Part shown: positions 16,120-62,712 of the stretch, in pieces
Numbering within the stretch: the stretch's first letter is position 1
Layout: every line of letters starts with the position of its first letter
Assembly (NCBI GenBank): GCA_017442875.1
Contig: JAFSPN010000046.1
Coordinates: 723 to 64,722, forward strand
Direction: 5' to 3'
DNA: 64,000 bases
From: Bacilli bacterium
GTDB lineage: Bacteria; Bacillota_I; Bacilli_A; RFN20; CAG-826
Position numbers and translations under genes: made by a program
The notes under the pieces: model-generated
Seen by the model: the letters and a program-made list of their open reading frames with translations, nothing else
Databases searched by the model: none
Told to the model about the DNA's origin: nothing

Positions 16120-18254
16120 TAGTCTTCTCCTTTCAAACTTGGGTTAATCGCATCTCTTAAGCCGTTACCGAATAAGTTAAATGAAATCATAATTAAAGCG
16201 ATAATAACGGCAGGGAAGATAAGTAAGTATGGGTTAGTTAATAATTCCGCTTGGTTATCCGATAAGACAACACCTAATGAAGAAGTATTCTTTAAGCCTA
16301 AACCTAAATAGGAAATTGTGGCTTCGGAGAAGATAACGCTTGGAATCATTAAAACTGCACCGGTAATAATCGTACCTAAAGCATTAGGTAAGATGTGTTT
16401 GGCAATCAAACGCGCATCAGAAGCGCCCAATGTACGGGACGCTAAAACGTATTCACGTCCTCTAAATCTATAGAACTGTGTTCTCGTTCTTGCCGCGGTA
16501 CCAATCCAACCTGTTAGACAGAGCGCTAAAGCGAATGTCCAGAAGTTCGAACCGAAGTGCAAGATGATTAAAGTCATAACGACAATCCATGGAATACCAG
16601 ATAGGATATCGGTAAATCTTTCCATGAGTAAGTCGACTGCACCACCGAAATAGCCACAGATAGAGCCCCAAATCAAACCGAAGGTAAAGCAAACCGCGAA
16701 TGTCAAAACACCGAGTAATAATGATGTTCTTAAACCTTCAAAGACATATTTAAACATGTCTCTACCAGATTTATCTGTGCCCATCAAGTAAATAGGGGCT
16801 TTTGTATATCCTAAGTATTTATAATAATGGACGGAGAATTTGACGCCTAATGTGCCAAAGACATCATCACCATAGAAATCATCGGCAGTAATTTCTTTAG
16901 CAAGTGGGCAATTAACTGGATCTAAAATCTTGAAAGAATAATTAGTGCGGTCAATGAAATAACCACTGTCATCTTTCCAAACGGTATCAAGACCAAACTG
17001 ATCTTTAAATGAAATCCAGCCTTTATCAGCGTAAGTTAATAAGTCACTGACGAATTCGCCTTCGATTTGTCTAACGCCGAATGCGGCTTCGTAAGTATCA
17101 TAAACAAATGAGCAGAAATGGGCTTTAGAAAGATAGATTCTTCTGACACCAGTACTACTCCAATATTCATACCCATCATTGATGGATTTGGTCATCGCCT
17201 TTGTCGCATCAGTGAAAGACATATCATTAAATATGTTTCTAATATTTTCGCTTGTGGAAGCACTTTCAAAAGTAATGCTTCTAATTAAAGCACATGTATT
17301 CTTTTGATGTTCGTGTTCAACGTTTAATCTAACAGAGAAGGAGGCGTTTTGGAATTCGGTTTGACCACCGGTTTCGTTTTTGATGATATCGCTAATGTTG
17401 AGTTTTTCTTCTTTTAAGCGCTCAACCGCACTACCAATGTTATGGACAGTAGCATAGTCCACTAATTTGATTTCTTTATCTTCTAAAACGTTATCGGTAT
17501 TTAATTCAGAATAAAGGAAATAGAAAGCGGATTCACCAACGACATAATTATCAGGAGCGTTGAAACTATCTTTGCCTTCTTTTTCTCTAATTTTATTAGC
17601 ATCATATGTGTCAAAAGATGTGAGATATAAATCATTGTCTAAAACCAAAGAAGGAATAGCTTTAGAAGAGAAAGCCACATAATCGCTGGCTTCGCTTTCA
17701 TAATAGCCAAAATGGACATAACCCTCTTTACCAAAAGTACCGAGGTTAGAAATGTCGTTACTATATTTTTCTTCAGTAAATACTTTTTTACTAATCGCAC
17801 TTCTCTGTGGGAATTTCTTGCTTGATGGCCACCAGTGAAGTTGTTTTTCTTCTTCGGTTTTTGCGTCAGGCATTTCACTTAAGTCGACAGCGATATTGCT
17901 ATATTTGATTGTGCCATCCCAAAAACCTGTTCCCGCTTTGAAAAGTTTTGGAGCAAGATATGTTTCATATGGATGGGCCACTTTTGTGTTGCTTGTGTCA
18001 ACAAGTGGCACGATGAAAGACATGAGTAATAAAGCGCCCAAAATATAAGCAGCCACGACAGATGATTTGTTTTTACCAAATCTCTTAAGTGAGTCTTTCA
18101 AGAATGTGGTTGGTTTAGTTTGGAACTTTTGTTCATGAACTGAGGAATCAACTTGCGTTAGGACAAAATCATCTTTGCTGATATCAGCGTCTTCAATGAT
18201 TTCACCAGCATTAGGGGATTCATCAAGTAGTTCGAAATCTTTGTCTTCAAGCAT
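16119..18254 (-). CDS. oppC: oligopeptide-type ABC permease (OppC-like) with ~450-aa extracytoplasmic insertion after TM1
   Basis: The C-terminal ~270 aa is a BPD-type permease core with EAA loop ASRTLGASDARLIAKHILPNALG. I place the start at MLEDK (ATG 18254), one nt after the oppB stop and preceded by GGGGGA. The track ORF starts at 18299. The stop overlaps the oppD start at 16119. Confidence 0.85.
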   Translation of the reverse strand: MLEDKDFELLDESPNAGEIIEDADISKDDFVLTQVDSSVHEQKFQTKPTTFLKDSLKRFGKNKSSVVAAYILGALLLMSFIVPLVDTSNTKVAHPYETYLAPKLFKAGTGFWDGTIKYSNIAVDLSEMPDAKTEEEKQLHWWPSSKKFPQRSAISKKVFTEEKYSNDISNLGTFGKEGYVHFGYYESEASDYVAFSSKAIPSLVLDNDLYLTSFDTYDANKIREKEGKDSFNAPDNYVVGESAFYFLYSELNTDNVLEDKEIKLVDYATVHNIGSAVERLKEEKLNISDIIKNETGGQTEFQNASFSVRLNVEHEHQKNTCALIRSITFESASTSENIRNIFNDMSFTDATKAMTKSINDGYEYWSSTGVRRIYLSKAHFCSFVYDTYEAAFGVRQIEGEFVSDLLTYADKGWISFKDQFGLDTVWKDDSGYFIDRTNYSFKILDPVNCPLAKEITADDFYGDDVFGTLGVKFSVHYYKYLGYTKAPIYLMGTDKSGRDMFKYVFEGLRTSLLLGVLTFAVCFTFGLIWGSICGYFGGAVDLLMERFTDILSGIPWIVVMTLIILHFGSNFWTFALALCLTGWIGTAARTRTQFYRFRGREYVLASRTLGASDARLIAKHILPNALGTIITGAVLMIPSVIFSEATISYLGLGLKNTSSLGVVLSDNQAELLTNPYLLIFPAVIIALIMISFNLFGNGLRDAINPSLKGED

Positions 18255-18255
18255 A

Positions 18256-19320
18256 CTATTTCTTTTCCCCCATTCTGATTCTTGGGTCGATGAACCCATA
18301 TGATAAGTCTAGGATGATACCCGCTAATAAACCCACTGTGGTGAAAATAGCCATATCAACCATTAAGACGTTATAGTCAGGATTATTTTGATTCAAGGCT
18401 TGGATATATAAGTTACCAATGCCTGGAATACCATATAAACTCTCTAAAATCATGGAACCACCAAAGATACCAATGAATTCCGCTAAGATGGATGGAAGAA
18501 TTGGGACGAACGCATTTCTTAAAGCGTGTCTAACAATCGCTTGGTTTTTGGTTAAGCCTTTGGTTCTCGCTAAAAGTAAATATTCACTAGACATAACTTC
18601 ACAAAGTTCGGCTCTAACGAATCTAGTGTAACCACAGATTGAACCAAAAGATAAGGACATGACTGGAATAATAAAGGCCAATGTCTTAGTTCTAGTGGAT
18701 TGGTCAGGTGTTGGCCACATTGTTGGTAACCAACCAGTTTTAAACGCTAATAAATAGATTAAGAACGAAATAACAACGAAGGATGGGATGGAAATGAACA
18801 CCATTACTAATGTAGAAATAGTATGGTCAACCCAGGTGTTTTTCTTTAAACCCGCTAAAATGCCAAAAGCAATGCCTAATGGCACGGAAACGATAACGGA
18901 AACGATATTGACAGACATTGAAGCTGGTAAACGTTGAGCGATAATGCGAATCGCGGAAGCGTTTGGTTCAATCGCTGTACTTCTACCCCAGTCCCATTTA
19001 GTGACAATATTGCCTAACCATGAGAAATATTGTTCAACAATTGGTCTTTGATAGAAATAGAACCATTCATCACCAATCTTCATTTGATCAAGTGGTGCCA
19101 CGTTAGGAACAAAGCCAGCATCAACTTCCGCTGCTGTTTTGGTAAAATAAGTCACATATCCTAACTTAAATTGATCCATATAGAAAGCATATCTAACGTT
19201 TTCTTGTGGAGAGAACACCTTAACAGGAGGGAGTGATTTAACTAAAAAGAAAGTCAAAGTCAAAATAATAAACGCTGTTAGAAACGCCAATAAGATTCTT
19301 TTTAACGAATATTTTAACAT
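18256..19320 (-). CDS. oppB: oligopeptide-type ABC permease (OppB-like)
   Basis: Start at MLKYSLKRILLAFLT, a typical OppB N-terminus; the track ORF extends to 19389. EAA loop: LLARTKGLTKNQAIVRHALRNAFVP. Confidence 0.9.
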   Translation of the reverse strand: MLKYSLKRILLAFLTAFIILTLTFFLVKSLPPVKVFSPQENVRYAFYMDQFKLGYVTYFTKTAAEVDAGFVPNVAPLDQMKIGDEWFYFYQRPIVEQYFSWLGNIVTKWDWGRSTAIEPNASAIRIIAQRLPASMSVNIVSVIVSVPLGIAFGILAGLKKNTWVDHTISTLVMVFISIPSFVVISFLIYLLAFKTGWLPTMWPTPDQSTRTKTLAFIIPVMSLSFGSICGYTRFVRAELCEVMSSEYLLLARTKGLTKNQAIVRHALRNAFVPILPSILAEFIGIFGGSMILESLYGIPGIGNLYIQALNQNNPDYNVLMVDMAIFTTVGLLAGIILDLSYGFIDPRIRMGEKK

Positions 19321-50296: not shown

Positions 50297-50563
50297 TTAA
50301 TAATGATTTTGCTATTTATACATTATACGCACATTTGGGCATGATAAAGTCATGAGGATTTAAGTTTCCAATCGTCGAATAAATCATTTGTAGTTGCCTG
50401 AACTCACTTATCCGCTTTTGGACAATTTTATCTATCCATATTATGTCGTGTTTATGATCATTCGCGAACAAGAAAAAACCGAGATTTTTCACTCAGCTCT
50501 GTTTCTCAATAATTTTATATCGTAGCATTATCAAGTTTTTTTATTTTTTTATCTATGTATTCA

Positions 50564-51091
50564 TTAGTTTAAAAGGATATATCCTCTAAAGCCACGGACT
50601 GAATAATATGAATCCGCGCTATTATGAAAATAGAAGATGTGGCCATATCTTTTTTCACAAAATAAAGCACCACCTTTGCTTCTAATACTCTCCGGGGTTT
50701 TTATCCAACTTGATGTTGCTAAATCAAATTCTTCGATATTTTGTAAAAAATTATAAATATCTAAATCCATTAATAAAATGCCATTTTTGTTCGCTTCTTC
50801 TATCGCACTAGATATAGGAGCGTTTTTCTTTCTACTTAATCTAGCCTTCTCATCATAGCAGAGACTTTTTCTGCCTTTAGGTGTTTCTTTAGAAAAATCA
50901 CAAATGATTAATAGATTTAATGGTGTAATAAAAGCAACATCTACTTCTCCACCAGTTTCTTCCATATATTTAATTGAAGCTAATGTTTTGGGATTGTTGA
51001 TTTTAGTTAAAACATCATCCCATTTGATGCCTTCATGTCTATATAAATGCTGATCAAATCTACTTTTTAATGTTTCTAAAATATCATTCAT
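50564..51091 (-). CDS. DUF4256-like protein
   Basis: The 175-aa soluble protein has LKSRFDQHLYRHEGIKWDDV...YMEETGGEVDV, which matches my recollection of DUF4256. Not verified. Confidence 0.5.
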   Translation of the reverse strand: MNDILETLKSRFDQHLYRHEGIKWDDVLTKINNPKTLASIKYMEETGGEVDVAFITPLNLLIICDFSKETPKGRKSLCYDEKARLSRKKNAPISSAIEEANKNGILLMDLDIYNFLQNIEEFDLATSSWIKTPESIRSKGGALFCEKRYGHIFYFHNSADSYYSVRGFRGYILLN

Positions 51092-51216
51092 GCTTTCATG
51101 ATACAGTAAGCAAGACTACTTCTAATATGAATATTTAAAAAATTTGAGTTATTTTTATTTAAATAAGAATTCAAATAGATACCGCAAAGAGAAGTAAAAA
51201 GAAAAGGCCGCTATTA

Positions 51217-51375
51217 CACGGCTTTAGTATAATAAGTCATTTTGTCCATTTTTGAATAAGTAAATTTAAAAAATGTGTTGGTATGACTCCCGGCAAATAC
51301 CGCGCAGAAGTTATCAACACAAATGCTATTCACGCCCAAGACGTGATGTTTGATGTCATTAAAAATATCAATTAG
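51217..51375 (+). pseudogene. remnant of the C-terminal HTH of an AraC/XylS-family regulator (in-frame TGA, no N-terminal part)
   Basis: The frame reads HGFSIISHFVHF*ISKFKKCVGMTPGKYRAEVINTNAIHAQDVMFDVIKNIN*. GFS..SHF and FKK..GMTP..YR are the AraC second-helix signature. There is no upstream coding continuation and no start codon. Confidence 0.4.
51232..51267 (+). repeat. direct repeat copy A (ATAAGTCATTTTGTCCATTTTTGAATAAGTAAATTT)
   Basis: 33 of 36 positions are identical to 58473..58508 in the same orientation. On the minus strand it is followed by a hairpin (51207-51222) and CTTTTCTT. Confidence 0.8.
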
Positions 51376-54182
51376 ACACTATTCACTGTCCCGAAGAAAC
51401 CACTGAGATATGATCTGCTCCAATTAGTCATATCAGCAGCATTAGGAATATTGCAAACAAATGTATCATTAGCGAGAACTCCATTCCCTACATAGGTGAG
51501 TTCTTTATTTAATGTTAGAGATGGTAGATTCACTAAACCCGCAAAAGCATATGAACCTAATGTTTCTAACGTAGAAGGCAAGACATTTAGTCCATGATAA
51601 GTCTCAATCGCCACAAGAGATTGACAGTTATTAAATGCATAATCACTAATCTCGGTGACATTAGGTAAATCGATATGTTCTAAGATTAAACAACTATCAA
51701 AGCAGTGTTCAGGAATGACTTGCACACTACTAGGTAAAACGATTTCTTCTAAAGAACGACAATCATAGAATGTTTTCTTATTGAGTTGTAAGCCTTCACT
51801 TAAGACCACTTTTTGGACACCGAAAGCATTTTCAAATTGGTTTTCTTTCATCTGACCAGTACCAGTCACCACTACTTCGAGGTTTCTGGGAATTGCACTA
51901 TCACCAAAAAGATATCTAAATGAAGTAAATGAATCTTTATTTATTGTGATCTTTTGAAGCCCTTCACACTCTTCAAAGATACCGAAACCGATATCGGTAA
52001 CGGAATCAGGAATAACAATCTCTTCTATAGAAGTATCTTTAAAAGCGTGAGGGCCAATATGAGTTAATACTGGAGATAAATTAATTGATGTTAATTCTTC
52101 GCAGTTCATAAAGGCTTCTTCCCCGATAGAAACGACATGTGATAAATCAGGAATCTTTTCCGCATTAATTCCGGAGAAAGAACGTTTACCGATATATTTA
52201 ACATCACCGAGTATTTCTACGATAGTAACGGATTGAATGCCTTTTAAGAAATCATCACAAATGGTTTCACCACTTAAAACTGTGACTTTTCTTAAACTCA
52301 TACTAGATAAGGCATTCTTAAATAAATCAGCGATAGGAGTAACAGCGTTCTTAAGAGTTAATTCTTCGATTAAAGATTGTCCGTATAATACTGCATCTAA
52401 TGATTCCACTTTATCGGACAGACAAGTAAAGGAAGTCATTCTTTTTGAGAACGAATTAGCAGCGAAAGCTTCGTATCCCACGTATTCCACATCTTCATTA
52501 ATCGTCACACTGGTTAACTTAGTTAATTCAAAAGAATTACAACCGATATGTTTGACGTGATCAAATGTGCGATTGATATTCGTTAAACTTTCACTATAAG
52601 AGAAAGCGTAATCTCCGATATATTTACAGTTTGGAAAATCGATTTCATTGATATTAGTTCTCATCGCCGCGTGGTCACAAATTGTGGTGACATTTTCACC
52701 GGTGATTTTATTCGCACCACCATTGACGGGGATACTCTTGCTTCTTAATGTCTCAATGCTTTTCGGGAGAACAATATCTAGGCTTTCATCAGAATATGGT
52801 GCAGCCATCTTGATTAGTTCTTTACCATCTAATGTACAAATATATTTACCATCAATGATATTTAAATATCTATTGCGTTTATCTAAAGCGAATTTCTTAA
52901 TACCAGAATAAACAAATAATGTATTGTTAAAAGCTTCTGGAGCAATATCAGTTATATGATAAGGAATAACGATAGAGTAATAATAATCGGTGTGTGGTAA
53001 TCCAGAAGGAATGGTTGGAAGAGAATTCGAAGCAATTCTTTGCCCACCATTGTCGACTTCGCATTTTGCCCATATCGCATGTAACTTCACAGGTCCGGAA
53101 GAACCTCTATTAATGACATAATCTAAAATGGTTTGATCGCCATCATTTTCTTCTTCCACCCAACCAGCAAAAAGATATCCATTACGATAAGGGTAAGGGA
53201 TTCTTAAACCATCAGTTTCAATATTATAACCAGTGGGATATTCGTCGAAGAACATACCATCATAAAGTTCATAAGATATCGGGTATTCTATGTATTCATA
53301 TTCTGCGATAACCTTGCAATTCTCGCTAATATTGAAGACATTTTCTACTTTTTTGTGGGTTTTTTCCGTATACCAACCAGTAAATGTATAACCAAATTTA
53401 GTGGGTGTCGGTAATGTATAAGTTTCACCGAATGTATAATCCGCTTCTTGGATATCGCATTCTCCACCATTAGGATCGAATTCGATGTGATAGGTATTAG
53501 GAGAGAATCTCGCAGTGAGATTAACATCTTCACCCATATCTTTGGTAATGATATAAGGCTTATAGTATCCGTTAGATTTTCCATCGTTCCAACCGACGAA
53601 AGTATAACCATCACAATAAGCATCAGGAATAATAACTTTTGTACCATAGGTATAACTTCTTGGTGGATCGACCACAAAGCCTTCATTTAATTCATAATCA
53701 ATAGAATAGACATGGGGGTTGAAGTTAGCGAACAAAGATAAATTAATACGATGTGTATTCTTTAAATAAGAGAATGTTTCTACTTTCCAACCGCTGAAGT
53801 CGTAATGTTCTAATTCACTGGTTTGATCAATCACCGCTTCTTTTAGAAGAACATCATCATTAGGAGAACCTTTACTATTAAAAGAGACATTGATTTCTCC
53901 ACCGTATTTCAAAACCTTTTTCGCACACTTTAAATAGTGTTCTTGAGCAAAGAACATCTCTAATCCGATAGCGACACCTTTTCTTGCTAAACTGTCTCTA
54001 TAACCTAATATCTTGGTAAATAAAGTTTTGGCTTCTTCTAATTCGTAATTAGCGAGGTGTTGACTGGCTTGAATATAAATATTCTCACGATTATCACAGC
54101 TTGAAAGAAAGCCCATTCCGGAAATCACTAAAGCGGAAGAGAGAATGGTAAATAAAAGTTTTTTACTCTTCTTTAATTCCAT
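51372..54182 (-). CDS. surface lipoprotein with InlB-B-type repeats and BspA-type leucine-rich repeats
   Basis: Lipobox GFLSSC. Repeats: DGYTFVGWND, FGYTFTGWYT, NGYLFAGWVE. The C-terminal ~500 aa has LRR_5-type units (IVIPDSVTDIGFGIFEECEGLQKITI, IVLPSSVQVIPEHCFDSCLILEHIDL). The start overlaps the upstream gene by 10 nt. Confidence 0.8.
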   Translation of the reverse strand: MELKKSKKLLFTILSSALVISGMGFLSSCDNRENIYIQASQHLANYELEEAKTLFTKILGYRDSLARKGVAIGLEMFFAQEHYLKCAKKVLKYGGEINVSFNSKGSPNDDVLLKEAVIDQTSELEHYDFSGWKVETFSYLKNTHRINLSLFANFNPHVYSIDYELNEGFVVDPPRSYTYGTKVIIPDAYCDGYTFVGWNDGKSNGYYKPYIITKDMGEDVNLTARFSPNTYHIEFDPNGGECDIQEADYTFGETYTLPTPTKFGYTFTGWYTEKTHKKVENVFNISENCKVIAEYEYIEYPISYELYDGMFFDEYPTGYNIETDGLRIPYPYRNGYLFAGWVEEENDGDQTILDYVINRGSSGPVKLHAIWAKCEVDNGGQRIASNSLPTIPSGLPHTDYYYSIVIPYHITDIAPEAFNNTLFVYSGIKKFALDKRNRYLNIIDGKYICTLDGKELIKMAAPYSDESLDIVLPKSIETLRSKSIPVNGGANKITGENVTTICDHAAMRTNINEIDFPNCKYIGDYAFSYSESLTNINRTFDHVKHIGCNSFELTKLTSVTINEDVEYVGYEAFAANSFSKRMTSFTCLSDKVESLDAVLYGQSLIEELTLKNAVTPIADLFKNALSSMSLRKVTVLSGETICDDFLKGIQSVTIVEILGDVKYIGKRSFSGINAEKIPDLSHVVSIGEEAFMNCEELTSINLSPVLTHIGPHAFKDTSIEEIVIPDSVTDIGFGIFEECEGLQKITINKDSFTSFRYLFGDSAIPRNLEVVVTGTGQMKENQFENAFGVQKVVLSEGLQLNKKTFYDCRSLEEIVLPSSVQVIPEHCFDSCLILEHIDLPNVTEISDYAFNNCQSLVAIETYHGLNVLPSTLETLGSYAFAGLVNLPSLTLNKELTYVGNGVLANDTFVCNIPNAADMTNWSRSYLSGFFGTVNSV

Positions 54183-55528
54183 TGATGATTCTCCATCTTC
54201 TCTTTCATCGTGGGGATGATATCGGAAACAGTGCCCTTAAATAAGTGGTCATCTTCACTAGAGGTTTTATCAATTGTATCTGCGGCGTTATGTAGACCTA
54301 AATAACTAAATCTTGGACAGACCATACAAGCTTCTAAACTAATTGAATAAGCGTTGTCATAATTCTTTCTAAGGTTATAGGTGATATAAACATCGAGATC
54401 GAAATATAGACCAACACTATAGGAACCATTAGCAAATGTTGATGGCACGGTCATCGTCCCACTTCTATCATCCGCAAAAGCATCGTGATAATAAGTTAAT
54501 AAATTATTCGTGCTGGTATATAGTTCGTAATCATCGATATCCACCGCATATTTACTGACAATCGTGCCATCTTCATATACAGTTTCTACGAAATTAATCG
54601 TTGATAAATCATAGACATGAATATCGCTAGGAATCTGACTATCTTCATAGGAATATGCACTATTGACTGCATCAGCTACACGATTCTTAAGTGTGGAATC
54701 ATCTAATTTAGAATCACCATCAATCGTATAAGGAACAATAGTATCCGTTCCTTGCACGTGACTCATATAAACATCATCATATAAGCAGACATTACGAAGA
54801 GTACCCACATAGTATGTGGAATGGACATAGAAGATGTTAGGATCTTCCCAAGAATAACGGGAGCTACAGGTATATTTATCACTGATAGAAACCTTATCCA
54901 TCGCCGGAGACATATCATTGTTTTTCGCGGTTTGTGAATAGACCGCATGAATATCTAAATCACCGGTGATTAATGGATGCTCAGGATCCCAACCAATCCA
55001 TTTATAACGATAGAAGGAATCATTGTCTCTAAATGGTGTCCTTCCTTGATATCTTGGATAGTTATCATAAGGAACTTGTTGAGTGTATAAAACAGTGCCG
55101 TCATAGTCGATGAAATTAACCGTATAGATACGATCACTAACAACGATATTGAGGGTGATATTGACCTTTACGCCTCTAAAGACTAAAGCGATGTTATGCA
55201 CACCAACTGTGCCAAATACACTTTCTCTAAATGAATCGGGGAATAATTCTTCCTTTAATGGGAATTCTTCTTTAGTGCCATCATTGTAATTAAGACGATA
55301 TTTCACATTGAAATAGTCGAAGTAACCAATTGGTATTTCATCAGGTATATTGAGGACTTCAACACTAGTGATTTCCTTTTCTCTATCAGGCTTCACGGGT
55401 GGTTCATAAGGAGGCAAAACGTTGTAAATCTCCTCTTTTTGTTCATAATATGCGTTATTTAAAGCATGTCCACACGCTGTGACAGCAAGCAATGCAATTA
55501 ACGCTAAAGTGATATGAGTGCGTTTCAT
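54173..55528 (-). CDS. lipoprotein with Ig-like and InlB-B-type repeat, C-terminal domain unknown
   Basis: Start at MKRTHITLALIALLAVTAC (lipobox), one nt after the upstream stop, with GAGGG upstream. The track ORF extends to 55567. Repeat: YTVNFIDYDGTVLYTQQV...YKWIGWDPE...DLDIHAVY. Confidence 0.7.
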   Translation of the reverse strand: MKRTHITLALIALLAVTACGHALNNAYYEQKEEIYNVLPPYEPPVKPDREKEITSVEVLNIPDEIPIGYFDYFNVKYRLNYNDGTKEEFPLKEELFPDSFRESVFGTVGVHNIALVFRGVKVNITLNIVVSDRIYTVNFIDYDGTVLYTQQVPYDNYPRYQGRTPFRDNDSFYRYKWIGWDPEHPLITGDLDIHAVYSQTAKNNDMSPAMDKVSISDKYTCSSRYSWEDPNIFYVHSTYYVGTLRNVCLYDDVYMSHVQGTDTIVPYTIDGDSKLDDSTLKNRVADAVNSAYSYEDSQIPSDIHVYDLSTINFVETVYEDGTIVSKYAVDIDDYELYTSTNNLLTYYHDAFADDRSGTMTVPSTFANGSYSVGLYFDLDVYITYNLRKNYDNAYSISLEACMVCPRFSYLGLHNAADTIDKTSSEDDHLFKGTVSDIIPTMKEKMENHQWN

Positions 55529-55529
55529 A

Positions 55530-58277
55530 TTAATTGCCCTCGCTTTCTTCATAGATGTAGATGCCATAGACTTCTAAATCGTAATAGACACCAGTGAAAG
55601 ATGTTGACCATCCCATAAACACCGCATTGCTCGGCATGAATCTATCTCTTTCTTCCGCGCTAGGTGCCGTAGCATCTAGTCCTTCTTCCACTACTTGTTC
55701 TTCGACTAAGTTATTTAAGCCATCATAAAACTTCACTGTATGATAGATGACATCGAAATAATAACTGGTAAATCTTAATGGTTCATGTTTCTCATGTGGT
55801 GCTTGGGGAACGACAAAAGTTTCACCCACTTCATAAATGCTACTGTTCTCGGTATTTAACCAACCGTAGAATCTCTTACCTTCCGATTCTCTATCTTTTG
55901 GACAATCGGGAATAGTAATCGCATTACCTAATGTGTAATAGCCCATATATTGGTCATCGAAATAAACCGGTCTCGCCATCGGATCTAAATAATGGAGTCT
56001 GACTTCGATGAAGTGATGTTGTCCTTCTCTTAACTTAAACATCGAACGAGGAACATCAACATATAAGGTATCGTTGAATTCAATGGGGTGATTAGATTTT
56101 AAGATTAAAGCACCATTAGAATAGGCAATATAACTTCCGCTTTCAAAAGAGAAACTAAATGGACATCCCTTAACAGTCTTACCTTGGTCATTAACATATT
56201 CGATATCTTTAACTGGATCATATTCAGTCTGAACAATCTTAAATGCTGTACCACTGATAGTTGCGAGATTTAATAGATGTAAATCATCTTTTACTTTAGT
56301 AATCTCTTTCTCTAATTCGATTGGACCATCAAATGTTGGTGCTTCTACAACATAATCAGCGTTATTCACATTAAAGAATGGTTTTCTAATCTTAAATAAG
56401 TCCGCGCTTAAATCGACAAAGAATATCACAAGAGATACACCGACATCTGCGTACCACCCCACTTCAAAACTAAAGGCGATGTCCGCTTCACAGCTCTTTC
56501 CAGTTGGACCGTTGCTCCACATAATCGTGCCGAAACCACTGAGAACCATATAGACACCCACATCCGCATAAACGGAGAGGTTGATATAATCTTCGAGACC
56601 ACAAACACCTAAACCGAATCTTAAATGTAAGCCAACATCAACACCAATAGAACCAACAATCGCTAACGAATGAGCGCTAGTTTCTAACGAATCAGTGGTC
56701 TTACTACTCTTATTATCATCGCCAGAACGATAAGAGATAATATGATTAACTGATTTAGAAGTATATGTATAGTTGACCATCACTTGAGCATCAATTTTAA
56801 TGACAAAGTTAAAGTCTAAGAAGAGATCGAAAATACCACCAATAGGCCAGCGACCGGTGCCTAATTTAATCTTGACGGCTCTGCCATCAAAATTAACTGC
56901 ATCTTTCTTGCTTTTTACAACACTATCGAAGTGGCTATCGGCCTTTTCATATTGTTCAGCTTTATCATAGATATAAGATGATAAGTGATTATAGTCAGTT
57001 TGATTATTGCCACTTGGAACCGGGACTTGTCCACCGACAGCAATTTGGAATCTAAATGATGTATCGACAGTTTCGGATATATCGACAGCGATATCAGCCC
57101 AATAAGGAACGCCTAAGAATCTTCTTAACGAACAAGAAGCATCAACTTTTAAAACCGATTTACGATAGTATTCAATCATAATAGTCACAGACACATATTT
57201 AGTGGGAATTGTGACACTGATGATTAAATCAAATGACCAGCCTGGCCATTCAAAACCAAATTTTGGTTTAAGTTTAATGTTCTTTAATAAATCGAGGAAT
57301 GTTTGGACATCGCCCGCTCTTACAGCACGCTTTTCTTCTGGAACAAATCGTTCATATTGTTCCATGATAAAATCTCTAAATTCTTCAGATTGTTGTAAGT
57401 TCTCAACAATGGATTTTTCACTGCATAATTCTAGGTCTTCAATCATGCCATCATCATAGTCATCAAAGAAAGCATTAAGACCGGAATCACCAAAGATTTT
57501 TCCTAAATCTGGATCGGTATAAGAAACTTCATTTTGTCCAGAAGAAACAATCTTTTCTCCTGCAAAAGTGCCATAAAATGCATTATTATCGATTTTTTTG
57601 CCATTCCAGAAGAGGAATTGTTCACCCGGTTGTAAGTTTAAGCTCTTCTTGGTGATCATCGTATGAGTTTCATGTGGACCACTAGAAGAAATATCCTGTC
57701 TAGAGATGATGTCGGAAAGAAGGAATCTCTTCACATCATTATTAACTTCATAAGTATCTTTTTCTTCGGCCTTTGTGTCGAAGTGAAATTCTCTAATAGA
57801 TTCATCCTTTTGATAGAAATGGAAAGGCGCACCATCTTTTAATTCGATCGTGTAGAATCTTCCTTCTTCATAAGGGATAACGGCATCAAAGCCATAAACA
57901 CCACCACCGAGGTTCTCAGAAGTTAAACTATGTTCTATATGTGTGGAATCATAAACACGAACATAAGTTTCTGGGGCTTCGGATAAAGAAGCACCTTCAT
58001 TAAGTTCTAAATAAAAGCGATAATCGGTTTCCTCATCTAAAGATGCGTTATTAGAAAGGGCTACTTCATGATCATAGTTTAAGAGATCTTCTTCATTAGT
58101 GGCCCAAAATGGTGCTTCTAATAGTTCACCTTCAGGGATGATGGGATCATCATCTGGTTGATATTCTGATGATTCATCATCATCGCTTGGTTCAGTTACT
58201 GTTTTATAATCGCATCCAGTTAAGGATGAGACTGCTAAGAATAGAGAAATTCCTAATAAATATAATTTCTTTTTCAT
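55530..58277 (-). CDS. large lipoprotein with central beta-hairpin-rich domain and two C-terminal InlB-B-type repeats
   Basis: Start at MKKKLYLLGISLFLAVSSLTGC (lipobox); the track ORF extends to 58322. The central region has reiterated [YW]ADxGV motifs. The C-terminus has KRFYGWLN and AVFMGWST repeats. Confidence 0.7.
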   Translation of the reverse strand: MKKKLYLLGISLFLAVSSLTGCDYKTVTEPSDDDESSEYQPDDDPIIPEGELLEAPFWATNEEDLLNYDHEVALSNNASLDEETDYRFYLELNEGASLSEAPETYVRVYDSTHIEHSLTSENLGGGVYGFDAVIPYEEGRFYTIELKDGAPFHFYQKDESIREFHFDTKAEEKDTYEVNNDVKRFLLSDIISRQDISSSGPHETHTMITKKSLNLQPGEQFLFWNGKKIDNNAFYGTFAGEKIVSSGQNEVSYTDPDLGKIFGDSGLNAFFDDYDDGMIEDLELCSEKSIVENLQQSEEFRDFIMEQYERFVPEEKRAVRAGDVQTFLDLLKNIKLKPKFGFEWPGWSFDLIISVTIPTKYVSVTIMIEYYRKSVLKVDASCSLRRFLGVPYWADIAVDISETVDTSFRFQIAVGGQVPVPSGNNQTDYNHLSSYIYDKAEQYEKADSHFDSVVKSKKDAVNFDGRAVKIKLGTGRWPIGGIFDLFLDFNFVIKIDAQVMVNYTYTSKSVNHIISYRSGDDNKSSKTTDSLETSAHSLAIVGSIGVDVGLHLRFGLGVCGLEDYINLSVYADVGVYMVLSGFGTIMWSNGPTGKSCEADIAFSFEVGWYADVGVSLVIFFVDLSADLFKIRKPFFNVNNADYVVEAPTFDGPIELEKEITKVKDDLHLLNLATISGTAFKIVQTEYDPVKDIEYVNDQGKTVKGCPFSFSFESGSYIAYSNGALILKSNHPIEFNDTLYVDVPRSMFKLREGQHHFIEVRLHYLDPMARPVYFDDQYMGYYTLGNAITIPDCPKDRESEGKRFYGWLNTENSSIYEVGETFVVPQAPHEKHEPLRFTSYYFDVIYHTVKFYDGLNNLVEEQVVEEGLDATAPSAEERDRFMPSNAVFMGWSTSFTGVYYDLEVYGIYIYEESEGN

Positions 58278-58435
58278 ATACATACATGATACACGCATTA
58301 AATAAGTTGTTACAAATAACATATTTTGGAAGAATTACAAATATTTTTTGTTTTTCTAAATTTATCACCTGTGCTTTTTCACTTCAGAAGAGATTATAAA
58401 GCTGATTAGTTGGCAAGAGATTGGAGTTCGAGACA

Positions 58436-58460
58436 CAAGAAAAGACCTCGTAAGAGGCCT
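58436..58460 (-). terminator. hairpin terminator downstream of repeat copy B
   Basis: The minus strand reads AGGCCTC-TTAC-GAGGTCT followed by TTTCTTGTG. Confidence 0.55.
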
Positions 58461-58472
58461 AATCTATGCTGG

Positions 58473-58508
58473 ATAAGTCATTTTGTCCAATTTTGAATAA
58501 GTGACTTT
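58473..58508 (+). repeat. direct repeat copy B (ATAAGTCATTTTGTCCAATTTTGAATAAGTGACTTT)
   Basis: 33 of 36 positions are identical to 51232..51267. It lies between the tRNA-Ala terminator and the hairpin at 58436-58460. Confidence 0.8.
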
Positions 58509-58521
58509 GGGCAACGACAAC

Positions 58522-58561
58522 CAGCAAAACAAAACCCCCTCCAAAATAAATTCGAAGGGGG
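58522..58561 (-). terminator. rho-independent terminator of tRNA-Ala
   Basis: The minus strand reads CCCCCTTC-loop-GGAGGGGG followed by TTTTGTTTTG, starting 4 nt after the tRNA 3' end. Confidence 0.65.
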
Positions 58562-58564
58562 TAT

Positions 58565-58640
58565 TGGTGGATCCAACGAGGATCGAACTCGCTACCTCAT
58601 CGTTGCGAACGATGCGCTCTCCCAGATGAGCTATGGACCC
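58565..58640 (-). tRNA. tRNA-Ala (anticodon CGC), CCA encoded
   Basis: The reverse complement folds by hand into a cloverleaf. Acceptor GGGTCCA/TGGATCC with the G3:U70 Ala identity pair. D arm GCTC/GAGC. Anticodon stem CATCG/CGATG with loop TTCGCAA. T arm GCGAG-TTCGATC-CTCGT. 3' ACCA. Total 76 nt. Confidence 0.9.
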
Positions 58641-61156: not shown

Positions 61157-62401
61157 ATGGAAAAACGTACAATTGCGGTCATTGATTTGAAAGCTTTTTA
61201 CTCGTATGTTGAATGCCTTGATCGAAACCTTGATCCCTGGACTACACCACTCGTGGTCGCGGATAAAGAAAGAGGTACTAACACGATTGTTTTGAGCGTC
61301 TCTCCATTTCTTAAAAAGCACGGTGTTCCTTCAAGATGCCGCATTAAAGAACTACCAAAGAAATTCAAATATGTTTATGCGGTTCCTAGAATGGAAAGAT
61401 ATCTAGAAAAGAGCGCGGATGTGATTAGTGTTTTATATCATTTTGTCGCTGAAGAAGACGTACACGTGTATTCAATTGATGAGGCTTTTGTGGATCTAAC
61501 GACTTATCTTGGTTACTATAAAAAGACGCCGCTTCAAATGGTGACCACTATTATTAATCAAATTAAAGAAGATACAGGCTTACAAGCTACCGCTGGTATA
61601 GGCGATAACTTCTTTTTAGCAAAAGTGGCTTTGGATATTTATGCAAAAACTGCGAAAAATGGTATCGCTAGATTACAAAGTAACGAAATCAAAGAAAAGT
61701 TATGGCCTATTACCCCATTACATAAAGTTTGGAGCATAGGCACAAGAACAGAAGCTAAGTTAAATAAGATGAACATATTCACCGTTAAAGATATCGCGAC
61801 ATCCAGTATTGATTACTTAAAAAGTAAATTTGGTGTCATGGGTGAGCAACTTTGGAGACACGCTAATGGTATCGATGAAGCAGATATTCATGAGAACTAT
61901 GAACCGAAAGAGAGAAGTTTCACTTTAGGGCAGGTTCTATTTAGAGATTATAATTCCAAGGAAGCCGTTACCATCATTAGAGAAATGGTTGATACGCTTA
62001 CTTCAAGAATGAGAAATGAAGATAAAATGTGCAACATGGTATCGATTTACATTGGCTATTCAAAAAATATGGGTGGATTTTCTAGAAGATCGACTCTATT
62101 AGCGGCCACTGATGATAGCAAACTTCTTTTGGATGCTGTTTTAGAAATATACCATCGTTATGTACAAGATTTACCAATCAGAAACATTGGTATTTATTAT
62201 GGAGGTTTGGTGCCTGCATCACATCAGCAATTAAATTTGTTCGAAGATGAAGACAAACAAGAAAAGCGCCACAATTTGCAAAAGGCTGTTGATAAATTAC
62301 ATAGTAAATACGGCAATAATTCTGTTTTAAGAGCGTCGTCTCTATTAGAAGAAAGCACCATTAAAGAAAGAAATGAGTATATAGGAGGTCATCGTAAATG
62401 A
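61157..62401 (+). CDS. Y-family (ImpB/MucB/UvrX-type) translesion DNA polymerase
   Basis: IAVIDLKAFYSYVEC...VYSIDEAFVDLT...ATAGIGDNFFLAKVALD are the Y-family palm and finger motifs. Confidence 0.85.
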   Translation: MEKRTIAVIDLKAFYSYVECLDRNLDPWTTPLVVADKERGTNTIVLSVSPFLKKHGVPSRCRIKELPKKFKYVYAVPRMERYLEKSADVISVLYHFVAEEDVHVYSIDEAFVDLTTYLGYYKKTPLQMVTTIINQIKEDTGLQATAGIGDNFFLAKVALDIYAKTAKNGIARLQSNEIKEKLWPITPLHKVWSIGTRTEAKLNKMNIFTVKDIATSSIDYLKSKFGVMGEQLWRHANGIDEADIHENYEPKERSFTLGQVLFRDYNSKEAVTIIREMVDTLTSRMRNEDKMCNMVSIYIGYSKNMGGFSRRSTLLAATDDSKLLLDAVLEIYHRYVQDLPIRNIGIYYGGLVPASHQQLNLFEDEDKQEKRHNLQKAVDKLHSKYGNNSVLRASSLLEESTIKERNEYIGGHRK

Positions 62402-62712
62402 GTGAACGCGGAATGAAAAAATGGGCTCCATATAAATCTTTAATCGAACAAGAAAAGTATTTAAAGAAAGCTCATAAAGATAACGAAGTTATTGAAAGAC
62501 CAATTATGTCTTCAGATGAAGCGGATGAAATAAACGAAATACTAGTAAATTATCACGGAGAAGAGCTAGAGATTTCTTATTGGAGAAACAATAAAATCAA
62601 TACTGTCTCCACTATTTTGGCCAAAATTGATCCAACAAACAAAAAGATTGTCCTCCCTGAGAGAAAGACAATCTATTTCAATGAATTATTAACGATTAAG
62701 CGGCTTAGATAG
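62398..62712 (+). CDS. YolD-like protein (UmuD-analog accessory of Y-family polymerases)
   Basis: 104 aa. RGMKKWAPYKSL near the N-terminus is typical of the YolD-like family. The start overlaps the polymerase stop (ATGA). Confidence 0.65.
   Translation: MSERGMKKWAPYKSLIEQEKYLKKAHKDNEVIERPIMSSDEADEINEILVNYHGEELEISYWRNNKINTVSTILAKIDPTNKKIVLPERKTIYFNELLTIKRLR

Follow-up and report, generated by a model that had tools for sequence, protein, structure and literature searches.

The 64,000-nt stretch analysed here (the window), taken from the 1.32-Mb genome of a Bacilli bacterium, carries at positions 51372-58277 three lipoprotein genes on the minus strand (P1, P2 and P3, of 915, 451 and 936 aa), which share their strand with a nearby tRNA-Ala(CGC) gene and are bracketed by two 36-bp direct repeats, A on the distal and B on the tRNA-proximal side. 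An original prediction had described this arrangement as a repeat-bracketed, island-like surface module beside tRNA-Ala, with no mobility gene. Several of its elements were borne out, given that the P1-P2 gap is 1 nt and the P2-P3 overlap 10 nt, as computed from the coordinates, and that all three proteins have a lipobox (LTGC in P1, VTAC in P2 and LSSC in P3) whose cysteine is invariant among the homologues. The repeats are 33/36 identical and 7241 bp apart, a pair of which no instance is expected by chance (100 shuffles), and these are the sole two copies in the genome, while ARAGORN places the tRNA gene 56 nt from repeat B. A domain search of the block and the neighbouring genes (the flanks encode DUF4256, acyltransferase, phosphodiesterase, RmuC and Pol IV proteins) returned no integrase, transposase or other recombinase domain, as had been stated. 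The reading of the repeats as att-like brackets of an island, on the other hand, was replaced by that of two left ends within a decaying stack of mini-transposons, for the reasons given below. In what follows, handles with numbers denote genomes (G, with G000 being the window's own) or loci and contigs from other genomes or metagenomes (L), and the letters L and R without a number denote element ends.

The left and right ends

When read on the minus strand, each repeat copy is followed by a hairpin and a T-run, and the alignment of the copies delimits a conserved unit formed by TGTCGTTGTCC, the 36-mer, about 12 nt, the hairpin and the T-run, i.e., a "left end" (L) of ~75 nt made up of a TGT terminus, two ~22-bp sites and an intrinsic terminator. 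Across 31 additional copies, from ~22 metagenome-assembled genomes (MAGs) of rumen Bacilli, the repeat core hardly varies and always stands within this same succession of elements, and the hairpin is found in three unrelated sequence classes, in all of which the stem is preserved. A second conserved block of ~100 nt, the "right end" (R), precedes those left ends that do not adjoin the tRNA, and consists of a terminator, repeated GACAAAA-type motifs and the terminus ...CAACTACA. As the reverse complement of this block aligns to the left end (TGTAGTTGCCTGAACTCACTTATCC... against TGTCGTTGCCCAAAGTCACTTATTC...), L and R are the two ends of an element with imperfect terminal inverted repeats of ~50 bp, of the form TGT...ACA, in which L begins with TGTCGTTGTCC and R finishes with ...CAACTACA. 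L contains two and R three instances of the pattern TTGTC-N9-CTTATYC, with a period of ~24 bp, and the ~22-bp sites are presumed to be transposase-binding sites.

Other roles for the conserved unit were discarded. As a coding sequence the 36-mer was rejected because all its plus-strand frames contain stops and the minus strand offers no consistent one, and an upstream RNA stem formed by TTGTCCAA and TTGGACAA accrues mismatches without compensation (both judged by reading the copies), while a promoter within the element is conserved in hairpin class 1 only. The Rfam search of five element-bearing loci matched the tRNA and nothing else.

In the window, L(B) matches the nhmmer profile of the left end over positions 1-51 (E 1e-17) and aligns with the 31 copies from other MAGs, whereas L(A) matches at positions 12-47 only, its first 11 nt being gone; the class-2 hairpin of L(A) (agccgtgtaa..cggc) is common to L063, L069 and L072. 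The R of the window, which is the sole strong match to the right-end profile in this genome and repeats ~50 bp of L(B) imperfectly in inverted orientation, lies beyond the DUF4256 gene, outside the interval considered by the original prediction, where it was missed. The window thus holds two left ends and one right end (Table 1), and the repeats do not bracket an island in the sense first proposed, given that the sequence on either side of B is canonical, that A is truncated and that the true inverted partner stands on the far side of DUF4256.

Table 1. Features of the array and its surroundings in the window, listed from the tRNA gene outwards
Feature	Position	Strand	Basis
tRNA-Ala(CGC), anchor of the insertion hotspot	58565..58640	-	ARAGORN; Rfam tRNA, 58 bits
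Native tRNA terminator hairpin (C-rich stem, T-run), between the tRNA and L(B)	58534..58562	-	terminator scan
L(B), complete left end: terminal TGTCGTTGCCC, two ~22-bp sites (including repeat B, 58473-58508), hairpin 58443-58460 and T-run	58435..58519	-	nhmmer, site pattern, terminator scan
Decayed antisense tRNA-Ala(CGC) pseudogene relic, T-loop truncated	58393..58435	+	alignment with the pseudo-tRNAs of L051, L057 and L070, ending GTTCGAGAC
Operon block of 97% identity	51363..58326	-	blastn against L099 and L100
Candidate operon promoter, TTGTAA-18-TATCAT	58286..58315	-	consensus scan only
P1, 915-aa lipoprotein (MKKKLYLL start; stop ends at 55530)	55530..58277	-	lipobox
P2, 451-aa lipoprotein (ATG at 55528, end at 54173)	54173..55528	-	conserved P1-P2 pairing in other contigs
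P3, 936-aa lipoprotein (start at 54182), Flg_new repeats and ~500 aa of BspA-type LRR_5	51372..54182	-	Pfam, NCBIfam
Probable AraC-family C-terminal relic (KFKKCVGMTPGKYR...NIN-stop), convergent with P3 and fused to L(A)	51268..51378	+	translation
L(A), truncated left end: repeat A (51232-51267) and class-2 hairpin (51207-51222), terminal TGTCGTTGTCC missing	51207..51267	-	nhmmer, terminator scan
DUF4256 gene, read as cargo of the distal (older) cassette	50564..51091	-	Pfam DUF4256, 3e-65
Right end R: hairpin 50475-50500, three ~22-bp sites, terminus ...CAACTACA at 50389	50389..50500	-	nhmmer R profile, E 1e-20
Acyltransferase and further genes	below 50389

One class of left ends is followed by an antisense, near full-length tRNA-Ala(CGC) pseudogene, which is cut off within its T-loop and joined at a constant junction (…GTTCGAGAC), i.e., by an inverted partial copy of the target gene of the cassette itself. 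It was seen in L051, L057 (6596), L070 (5038 and 6791), L071 and L052, and in the window at ~58393-58435, where the T-arm half alone is clearly retained.

Empty and occupied sites behind the tRNA gene

A pattern search of 61 related genomes recovered the 36-mer in seven, including that of the window and one from another genus, in which a 36/36 copy follows rpsR; among the relatives, it stands directly behind tRNA-Ala in G003 and G007, and three more copies, ~580 nt apart, are present in G010. The scan of all the GTDB species genomes yielded 25 stretches with the 36-mer, all of them from MAGs of the ruminant gut that bear the label "Bacilli bacterium" or "uncultured Erysipelotrichaceae". In 16 MAG copies, the TGT terminus lies ~12-14 nt past the CCA of tRNA-Ala(CGC), always in the same orientation, and the genes upstream of the tRNA differ. 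The L...R pairs located with the nhmmer profiles bound unrelated cargo of 0.6-2 kb, such as Fic, XRE regulators, RhuM, Phd with ParE-GNAT, a GFO-type oxidoreductase, lipoproteins and peptides with Nif11-type double-glycine leaders, and the notion that the repeats are att sites, or the duplication left by one integration, gives way to that of left ends which flank unrelated cargo in many genomes.

The comparison with related genomes that the original prediction had proposed does reveal empty sites behind tRNA-Ala in two genomes of the same genus (G001 and G008). The empty site of G008 reads CCA-ATTAGCGT-TATTC and continues into the native terminator and a conserved membrane-protein gene, while in G003 the same position is occupied by a complete cassette, CCA-ATTAGCGT-TGTTC-[L..1.6 kb..R]-TGTTT, followed by the terminator and gene of G008. 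The native terminator has thus been displaced, and the element is flanked by a 5-bp target duplication (TGTTC/TGTTT), as read from this single clean G003/G008 pair, with 4/5 bases identical. Given the TGT/ACA termini, the asymmetric multi-site ends, the fixed orientation, the fixed distance from the tRNA and the 5-bp duplication, the cassettes have the hallmarks of DDE-type transposition of the Tn7/Tn5053/Mu kind.

Arrays of such cassettes are present in G006 and G010, and the spacers between a right end and the following left end are mostly 5 nt long (range 2-8). In G006, the order is tRNA-L-Fic-R, followed by an orthologous DUF4256 cassette 1.2 kb from tRNA-Ala, and the operon is absent; the DUF4256 homologue lies in L073, with similar flanks. 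At 2165-2260 of this locus, a right end cut back to its inner part runs straight into the second half of a left end (…gaatgGACAAAAAGACTTATTTAGCATAG…). The fusion arose by deletion between GGACAAAA motifs that resemble each other and exemplifies natural array decay, so that end-to-end deletions do happen in such arrays. A blastn search of PLSDB plasmids with an R|L junction gave no match.

Two further observations concern the cargo and the ends. Up to ~12 paralogous genes of ~95 aa, with Nif11-type double-glycine leaders (MKKELLKGLTEEQIAKVKACKN...GG), are arrayed in L054/L033 (G010), L053, L055 (G004) and L073 (G006), several of them each in its own ~580-bp L...R cassette, and no maturation or transport genes were seen near these arrays within the stretches examined. 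L065 (5839-6933) offers an arrangement similar to that of L(A) and its AraC relic in the window, with ~75 nt between the 3' end of a convergent AraC-family gene and a left-end fragment that is truncated at its 5' side (profile positions 15-51).

The operon as probable cargo of a decaying array

The operon is missing at the tRNA-Ala site in all 13 genomes of the same genus, in which the PolIV-RmuC-phosphodiesterase-tRNA-Ala synteny is kept, and only remote P1 homologues (23-24% identity) were found, in three of 40 related genomes. In blastn searches, two Logan contigs were 97% identical in nucleotides to the window exactly over 58326-51363 and matched nothing else in the window or the genome, the matches being 6964 bp long in L099 and 3732 bp, up to the contig end, in L100. 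The identity stops abruptly at both borders of the operon, and the flanks of both contigs differ from those of the window. L099 starts within a left end of hairpin class 3 and a pseudo-tRNA relic, in the same orientation and ~265 nt before P1; behind its P3 there is a convergent gene of the AraC type that looks intact (YFSKVFKKYSGLSPSDWR, as read from the DNA). In L100, the operon is instead preceded by a zinc-ribbon gene, together with small ORFs. As the 97% block has differing flanks and lies twice directly behind a left end, the operon is a discrete module that changes its context. The island reading of the original prediction is sustained to this extent, i.e., in the variable hotspot behind tRNA-Ala, the absence of the operon in 13 relatives and the empty sites, but not in the att-based mechanism of integration.

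Positions 58519 to 50389 are considered likely to be a small stack of transposase-less mini-transposons with ends of the Tn7/Tn5053/Mu style, situated at a tRNA-Ala(CGC) hotspot, in which the operon is the proximal cargo and its right end has been deleted. The hotspot would be used throughout this clade of uncultured rumen Bacilli by cassettes composed of a left end (TGT, two sites, terminator), the cargo and a right end (terminator, three sites, ACA), and the arrays would grow head-to-tail, with each new cassette entering between the tRNA and the previous one. In the window, the DUF4256 cassette would have been inserted first, and would now be the distal one, with its right end kept, and a second cassette, with the operon and a convergent AraC-type regulator, would then have been inserted proximally, starting with L(B) and a decayed antisense pseudo-tRNA. 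A single deletion may subsequently have taken most of the regulator, the proximal right end and the first 11 nt of L(A), and the two left ends that remained would be the direct 36-bp repeats reported by the original prediction. The alternative of a single composite transposition of the 8.1-kb L(B)...R unit was discarded, given that the pentamers that flank L(B) and R differ (CTGGT and AATGA), so that the unit was not acquired in one event. With its own right end deleted, the operon is probably an acquired cargo that is now either fixed or movable only as the 8.1-kb L(B)-R composite, and the "fixed module" of the original prediction is plausible for the same reason.

A number of observations weigh against this stacked-array interpretation. 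No TnsB/TniA-, TniB- or TniQ-like gene was found in the 14-16 array-bearing or related genomes searched. TniQ gave no match, the matches to Mu-transpos_C were confined to contigs of a single MAG that are Mu-phage-like and have neither L nor R ends, and those to rve were only ordinary insertion sequence (IS) transposases of ~300 aa, which several of the array genomes do not have, while the TniB family search was non-specific, as it also gave matches in 13 of 14 control genomes. The distance from the CCA to L(B), which stands behind the native terminator, is 45 nt and not the usual 12-13 nt, and the flanking pentamers of L(B) and R are those, mentioned above, that differ. The probable AraC relic depends on a 14-residue motif, with a weak match to the last 15 positions of the HTH_18 profile (E 0.19). 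The operon, of ~7 kb, is far bigger than the typical cassettes and has no right end of its own, so that its status as cargo is inferred, and in L100 there is no left end within 1.5 kb of it. The membrane-protein gene that follows the tRNA-Ala site in the relatives (orf844, MKKIW...) is split in G000 over the ends of two contigs (C14, 2054-3730, and C33, 3737-4620), unlinked to the array, which points to either a rearranged locus or a fragmented assembly. Finally, in the composition check set by the original prediction, the GC content of the operon (36.3%) is indistinguishable from that of the genome (36.6%), GC at third codon positions (GC3) is typical, and the tetranucleotide distance of the block reaches only the 97th percentile, which argues against a recent foreign origin.

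Some of these points would suit a different origin, in which the operon is ordinary chromosomal DNA, possibly exchanged by recombination, that was trapped between two cassette insertions or by a rearrangement, with the left ends not being its vehicle. The genome-typical GC and GC3, the missing right end of the operon segment and the lack of a nearby left end in L100 are all compatible with this, as are the rearrangement of the right flank of the array relative to the genus and the distant P1-P2(-P3) homologues (36-50% identity), which lie in unrelated chromosomal contexts without L/R ends or tRNA-Ala. It is nonetheless judged unlikely, given that the operon is absent from the site in all 13 genus relatives, that in the second strain (L099) the block again lies ~265 nt behind a left end with a pseudo-tRNA relic, and that the 97% identity ends abruptly at both borders.

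The repeats themselves might also be seen as a functional RNA or terminator module, either a small RNA derived from the 3' trailer of the tRNA or an insulator or attenuator before accessory genes, which was spread by duplication. The hairpin and T-run of every copy, the stem kept through three unrelated sequences, the position of copies upstream of diverse genes and the expected co-transcription of tRNA-adjacent copies with tRNA-Ala all fit such a module, although a role as terminator also fits the transposon reading. The module would leave the inverted TGT/ACA right ends, the 5-bp duplication and the empty and occupied sites unexplained, however, and there is neither an Rfam family match nor any compensating change in the TTGTCCAA/TTGGACAA stem, which makes this origin very improbable. 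A classical integrase island at a tRNA gene, of which the 36-bp repeats would be attL and attR and the integrase since lost, would account for direct repeats that bracket 7.2 kb beside a tRNA, but is scarcely credible, given that a distance of 56 nt separates the repeats from the tRNA, whose 3' end they neither overlap nor duplicate, that B is canonical on both sides where a crossover inside a canonical element would leave hybrid sites, that in many genomes unrelated cargo is delimited by the repeat sequence and its inverted partner, accompanied by a 5-bp duplication, and that the block has no integrase.

As to the neighbourhood of the stacked array, hairpins of the form CCCC..GGGG, resembling the native terminator of the window, are found behind the tRNA in G004, G016 and G012, its closest relatives. 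A Pol IV gene (ImuB/DinB-type) paired with a YolD-like gene is found 0.1-4 kb from tRNA-Ala(CGC) in several different genera of the clade (L058, L062, L064 and L069), and in the window at 61157-62712. Four short contigs of G072 (C132, C184, C81 and C53, i.e., L093-L096), coding for proteins that are MuA-like (526-696 aa) or MuB-like (~243 aa), are fragments of Mu-type transposable phages in a 2.7-Mb MAG and unrelated to the cassette ends.

Related systems and the lipoprotein trio

In their TGT...ACA termini, their asymmetric ends with two to three direct ~22-bp repeats and their one fixed orientation, the cassettes are similar to the Tn7-like, Tn5053 and Tn402 elements, and TGTCGTTGTCC presumably resembles the inverted repeat of Tn402. 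The insertion downstream of a conserved gene, at a distance that is short and fixed, the 5-bp duplication and the stacking recall Tn7 at glmS and the tRNA-targeting Tn7-like elements, including CRISPR-associated transposons (CASTs), with the L(B) of the window being the exception as to distance. Defence and toxin-type cargo is a further likeness to the Tn7-like elements (PMC8649781). Unlike these elements, no cassette has TnsA, TnsB, TnsC or TniQ genes in or near it, nor do the MAGs searched; the cassettes are tiny, often with a single gene, and each end has its own intrinsic terminator, while one subfamily bears an antisense truncated copy of the target tRNA. As the enzymes of transposition were not found, the cassettes may be said to work like non-autonomous mini-transposons of the Tn7 type, presumably through DDE-type transposition in trans, and are not filed as members of that group.

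The mobile insertion cassettes (MICs) of Bacillus cereus, such as MIC231, and the cargo-carrying miniature inverted-repeat transposable elements likewise hold passenger genes within transposon inverted repeats, without a transposase, and are presumably mobilised in trans. The MICs differ in being derived from a known insertion sequence (IS231) and in having no dedicated chromosomal hotspot, whereas the cassettes described here stack behind one tRNA and have no known parent element. The arrays are also reminiscent of those of integrons, i.e., head-to-tail series of mostly single-gene, promoter-poor cassettes on one platform, with imperfect palindromes at the junctions. In this case, however, the palindromes are formed by abutting R and L ends with a spacer of 2-8 nt (mostly 5), a target duplication is present, and no IntI, attI or attC signature and no integrase were found. 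To our knowledge, this type of cassette has no published description, none having been found in the literature searched.

The proteins encoded by the operon are less easily placed. P3 matches LRR_5 (2.7e-81, 270 bits, cut-off 27.7) and Flg_new (7.4e-23, 80.9 bits, cut-off 27) in Pfam and List_Bact_rpt in NCBIfam, so that the ~500 aa of BspA-type leucine-rich repeats (LRRs) predicted for the last protein are confirmed, while the InlB-B-type repeats predicted for all three are borne out in part, given that P3 alone has a significant Flg_new match. Neither P1 nor P2 matches any Pfam or NCBIfam family, and their excised segments have no Pfam match at E<=10; the PDB sequence searches with both proteins returned nothing, nor did Foldseek searches with their models at E<=0.001. 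In its ~500 aa of LRR_5 and its two to three Flg_new repeats (the "Listeria-Bacteroides repeat"), as in its surface anchoring, P3 is like the BspA and internalin-type LRR proteins, but it has a lipoprotein anchor instead of LPXTG or GW and is always encoded after P1 and P2, which are family-less and have long beta-hairpins.

The P1 family has 15 matches among 5.8 billion proteins, which comprise one 97%-identical copy, one partial of 528 aa and 13 full-length homologues (903-920 aa, with 36-49% identity). Two P1 homologues have a precomputed match to PF09479. The AlphaFold 2 (AF2) models of P1 and P2 are both of moderate quality. In that of P1 (pLDDT 63), beta domains at the N-terminus are followed by a central part with beta-hairpins of great length (~aa 334-619), with strands of 25-35 residues in its meander, and by well-modelled C-terminal beta domains. 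The P1 model has a weak Foldseek match to the InlB B-repeat (E 0.011, probability 0.97-0.99), which probably stems from the C-terminal part, the beta domains of which may be InlB-B-repeat-like.

A P2 homologue directly follows the P1 homologue in all five of the distant contexts (L075, L077, L078, L097 and L098), in alignments of 19-33% identity. A word-based search for P2 homologues gave one near-identical protein and no others. The third gene has LRR_5 and Flg_new in three of these contexts (L078, L097 and L098) and in the near-identical L099, and a GntR regulator follows P2 in the other two. In L098, a second family-less gene of 901 aa (16441-19146, minus strand), which may be a paralogue of P1, lies 3 kb from the trio. 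The AF2 model of P2 (pLDDT 69.5) presents a confident Ig-like domain, a domain of a ~70-aa repeat and then a long-hairpin domain, whose best matches, of the Cry35/BinAB/aerolysin type (Toxin_10), are non-significant. Residues ~130-205 correspond to a single copy of this ~70-aa repeat, which is found in up to 46 copies in giant surface proteins that have only weak Flg_new_2/SHIRT signals.

As to expression, the start of a 930-aa ORF at 58322 is probably spurious for P1. The candidate -10 box (TATCAT) lies 8 nt before the P1 ATG and no Shine-Dalgarno is found there (window 58277-58322), for which reason the mRNA of the operon, if the scanned promoter is the right one, may be leaderless. The trio is best seen as a putative co-translated, lipid-anchored surface complex, in which the LRR/Flg_new part of P3 would supply ligand binding.

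These threads could be drawn together into an integron-like platform for gene capture, made up of transposase-less mini-transposons which home to tRNA-Ala(CGC) by means of trans-acting enzymes from outside the recognised Tn7 families and which carry surface operons together with defence and bacteriocin genes, with the antisense tRNA taking part in homing or target immunity, and the trio being a tri-lipoprotein surface machine with aerolysin/Toxin_10-like hairpins; taken as a whole, this remains speculative and is rather doubtful.

The stacked-array interpretation would explain the apparent island without a mobility gene by non-autonomous, terminator-bearing mini-transposons that stack behind one tRNA. 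What is added to this picture is a clean pair of empty and occupied sites with the 5-bp duplication, instances of array decay by end-to-end deletions that immobilise the cargo, and evidence that a surface operon of three genes and 7 kb can be accommodated on the platform, an operon that is also found, with 97% identity, in other genomic contexts. Were the trans-acting machinery to be found, it would amount to a compact system for site-specific insertion, originating in an uncultured lineage. The conserved P1-P2-P3 trio is a candidate adhesion or surface complex of these small-genome rumen Bacilli.

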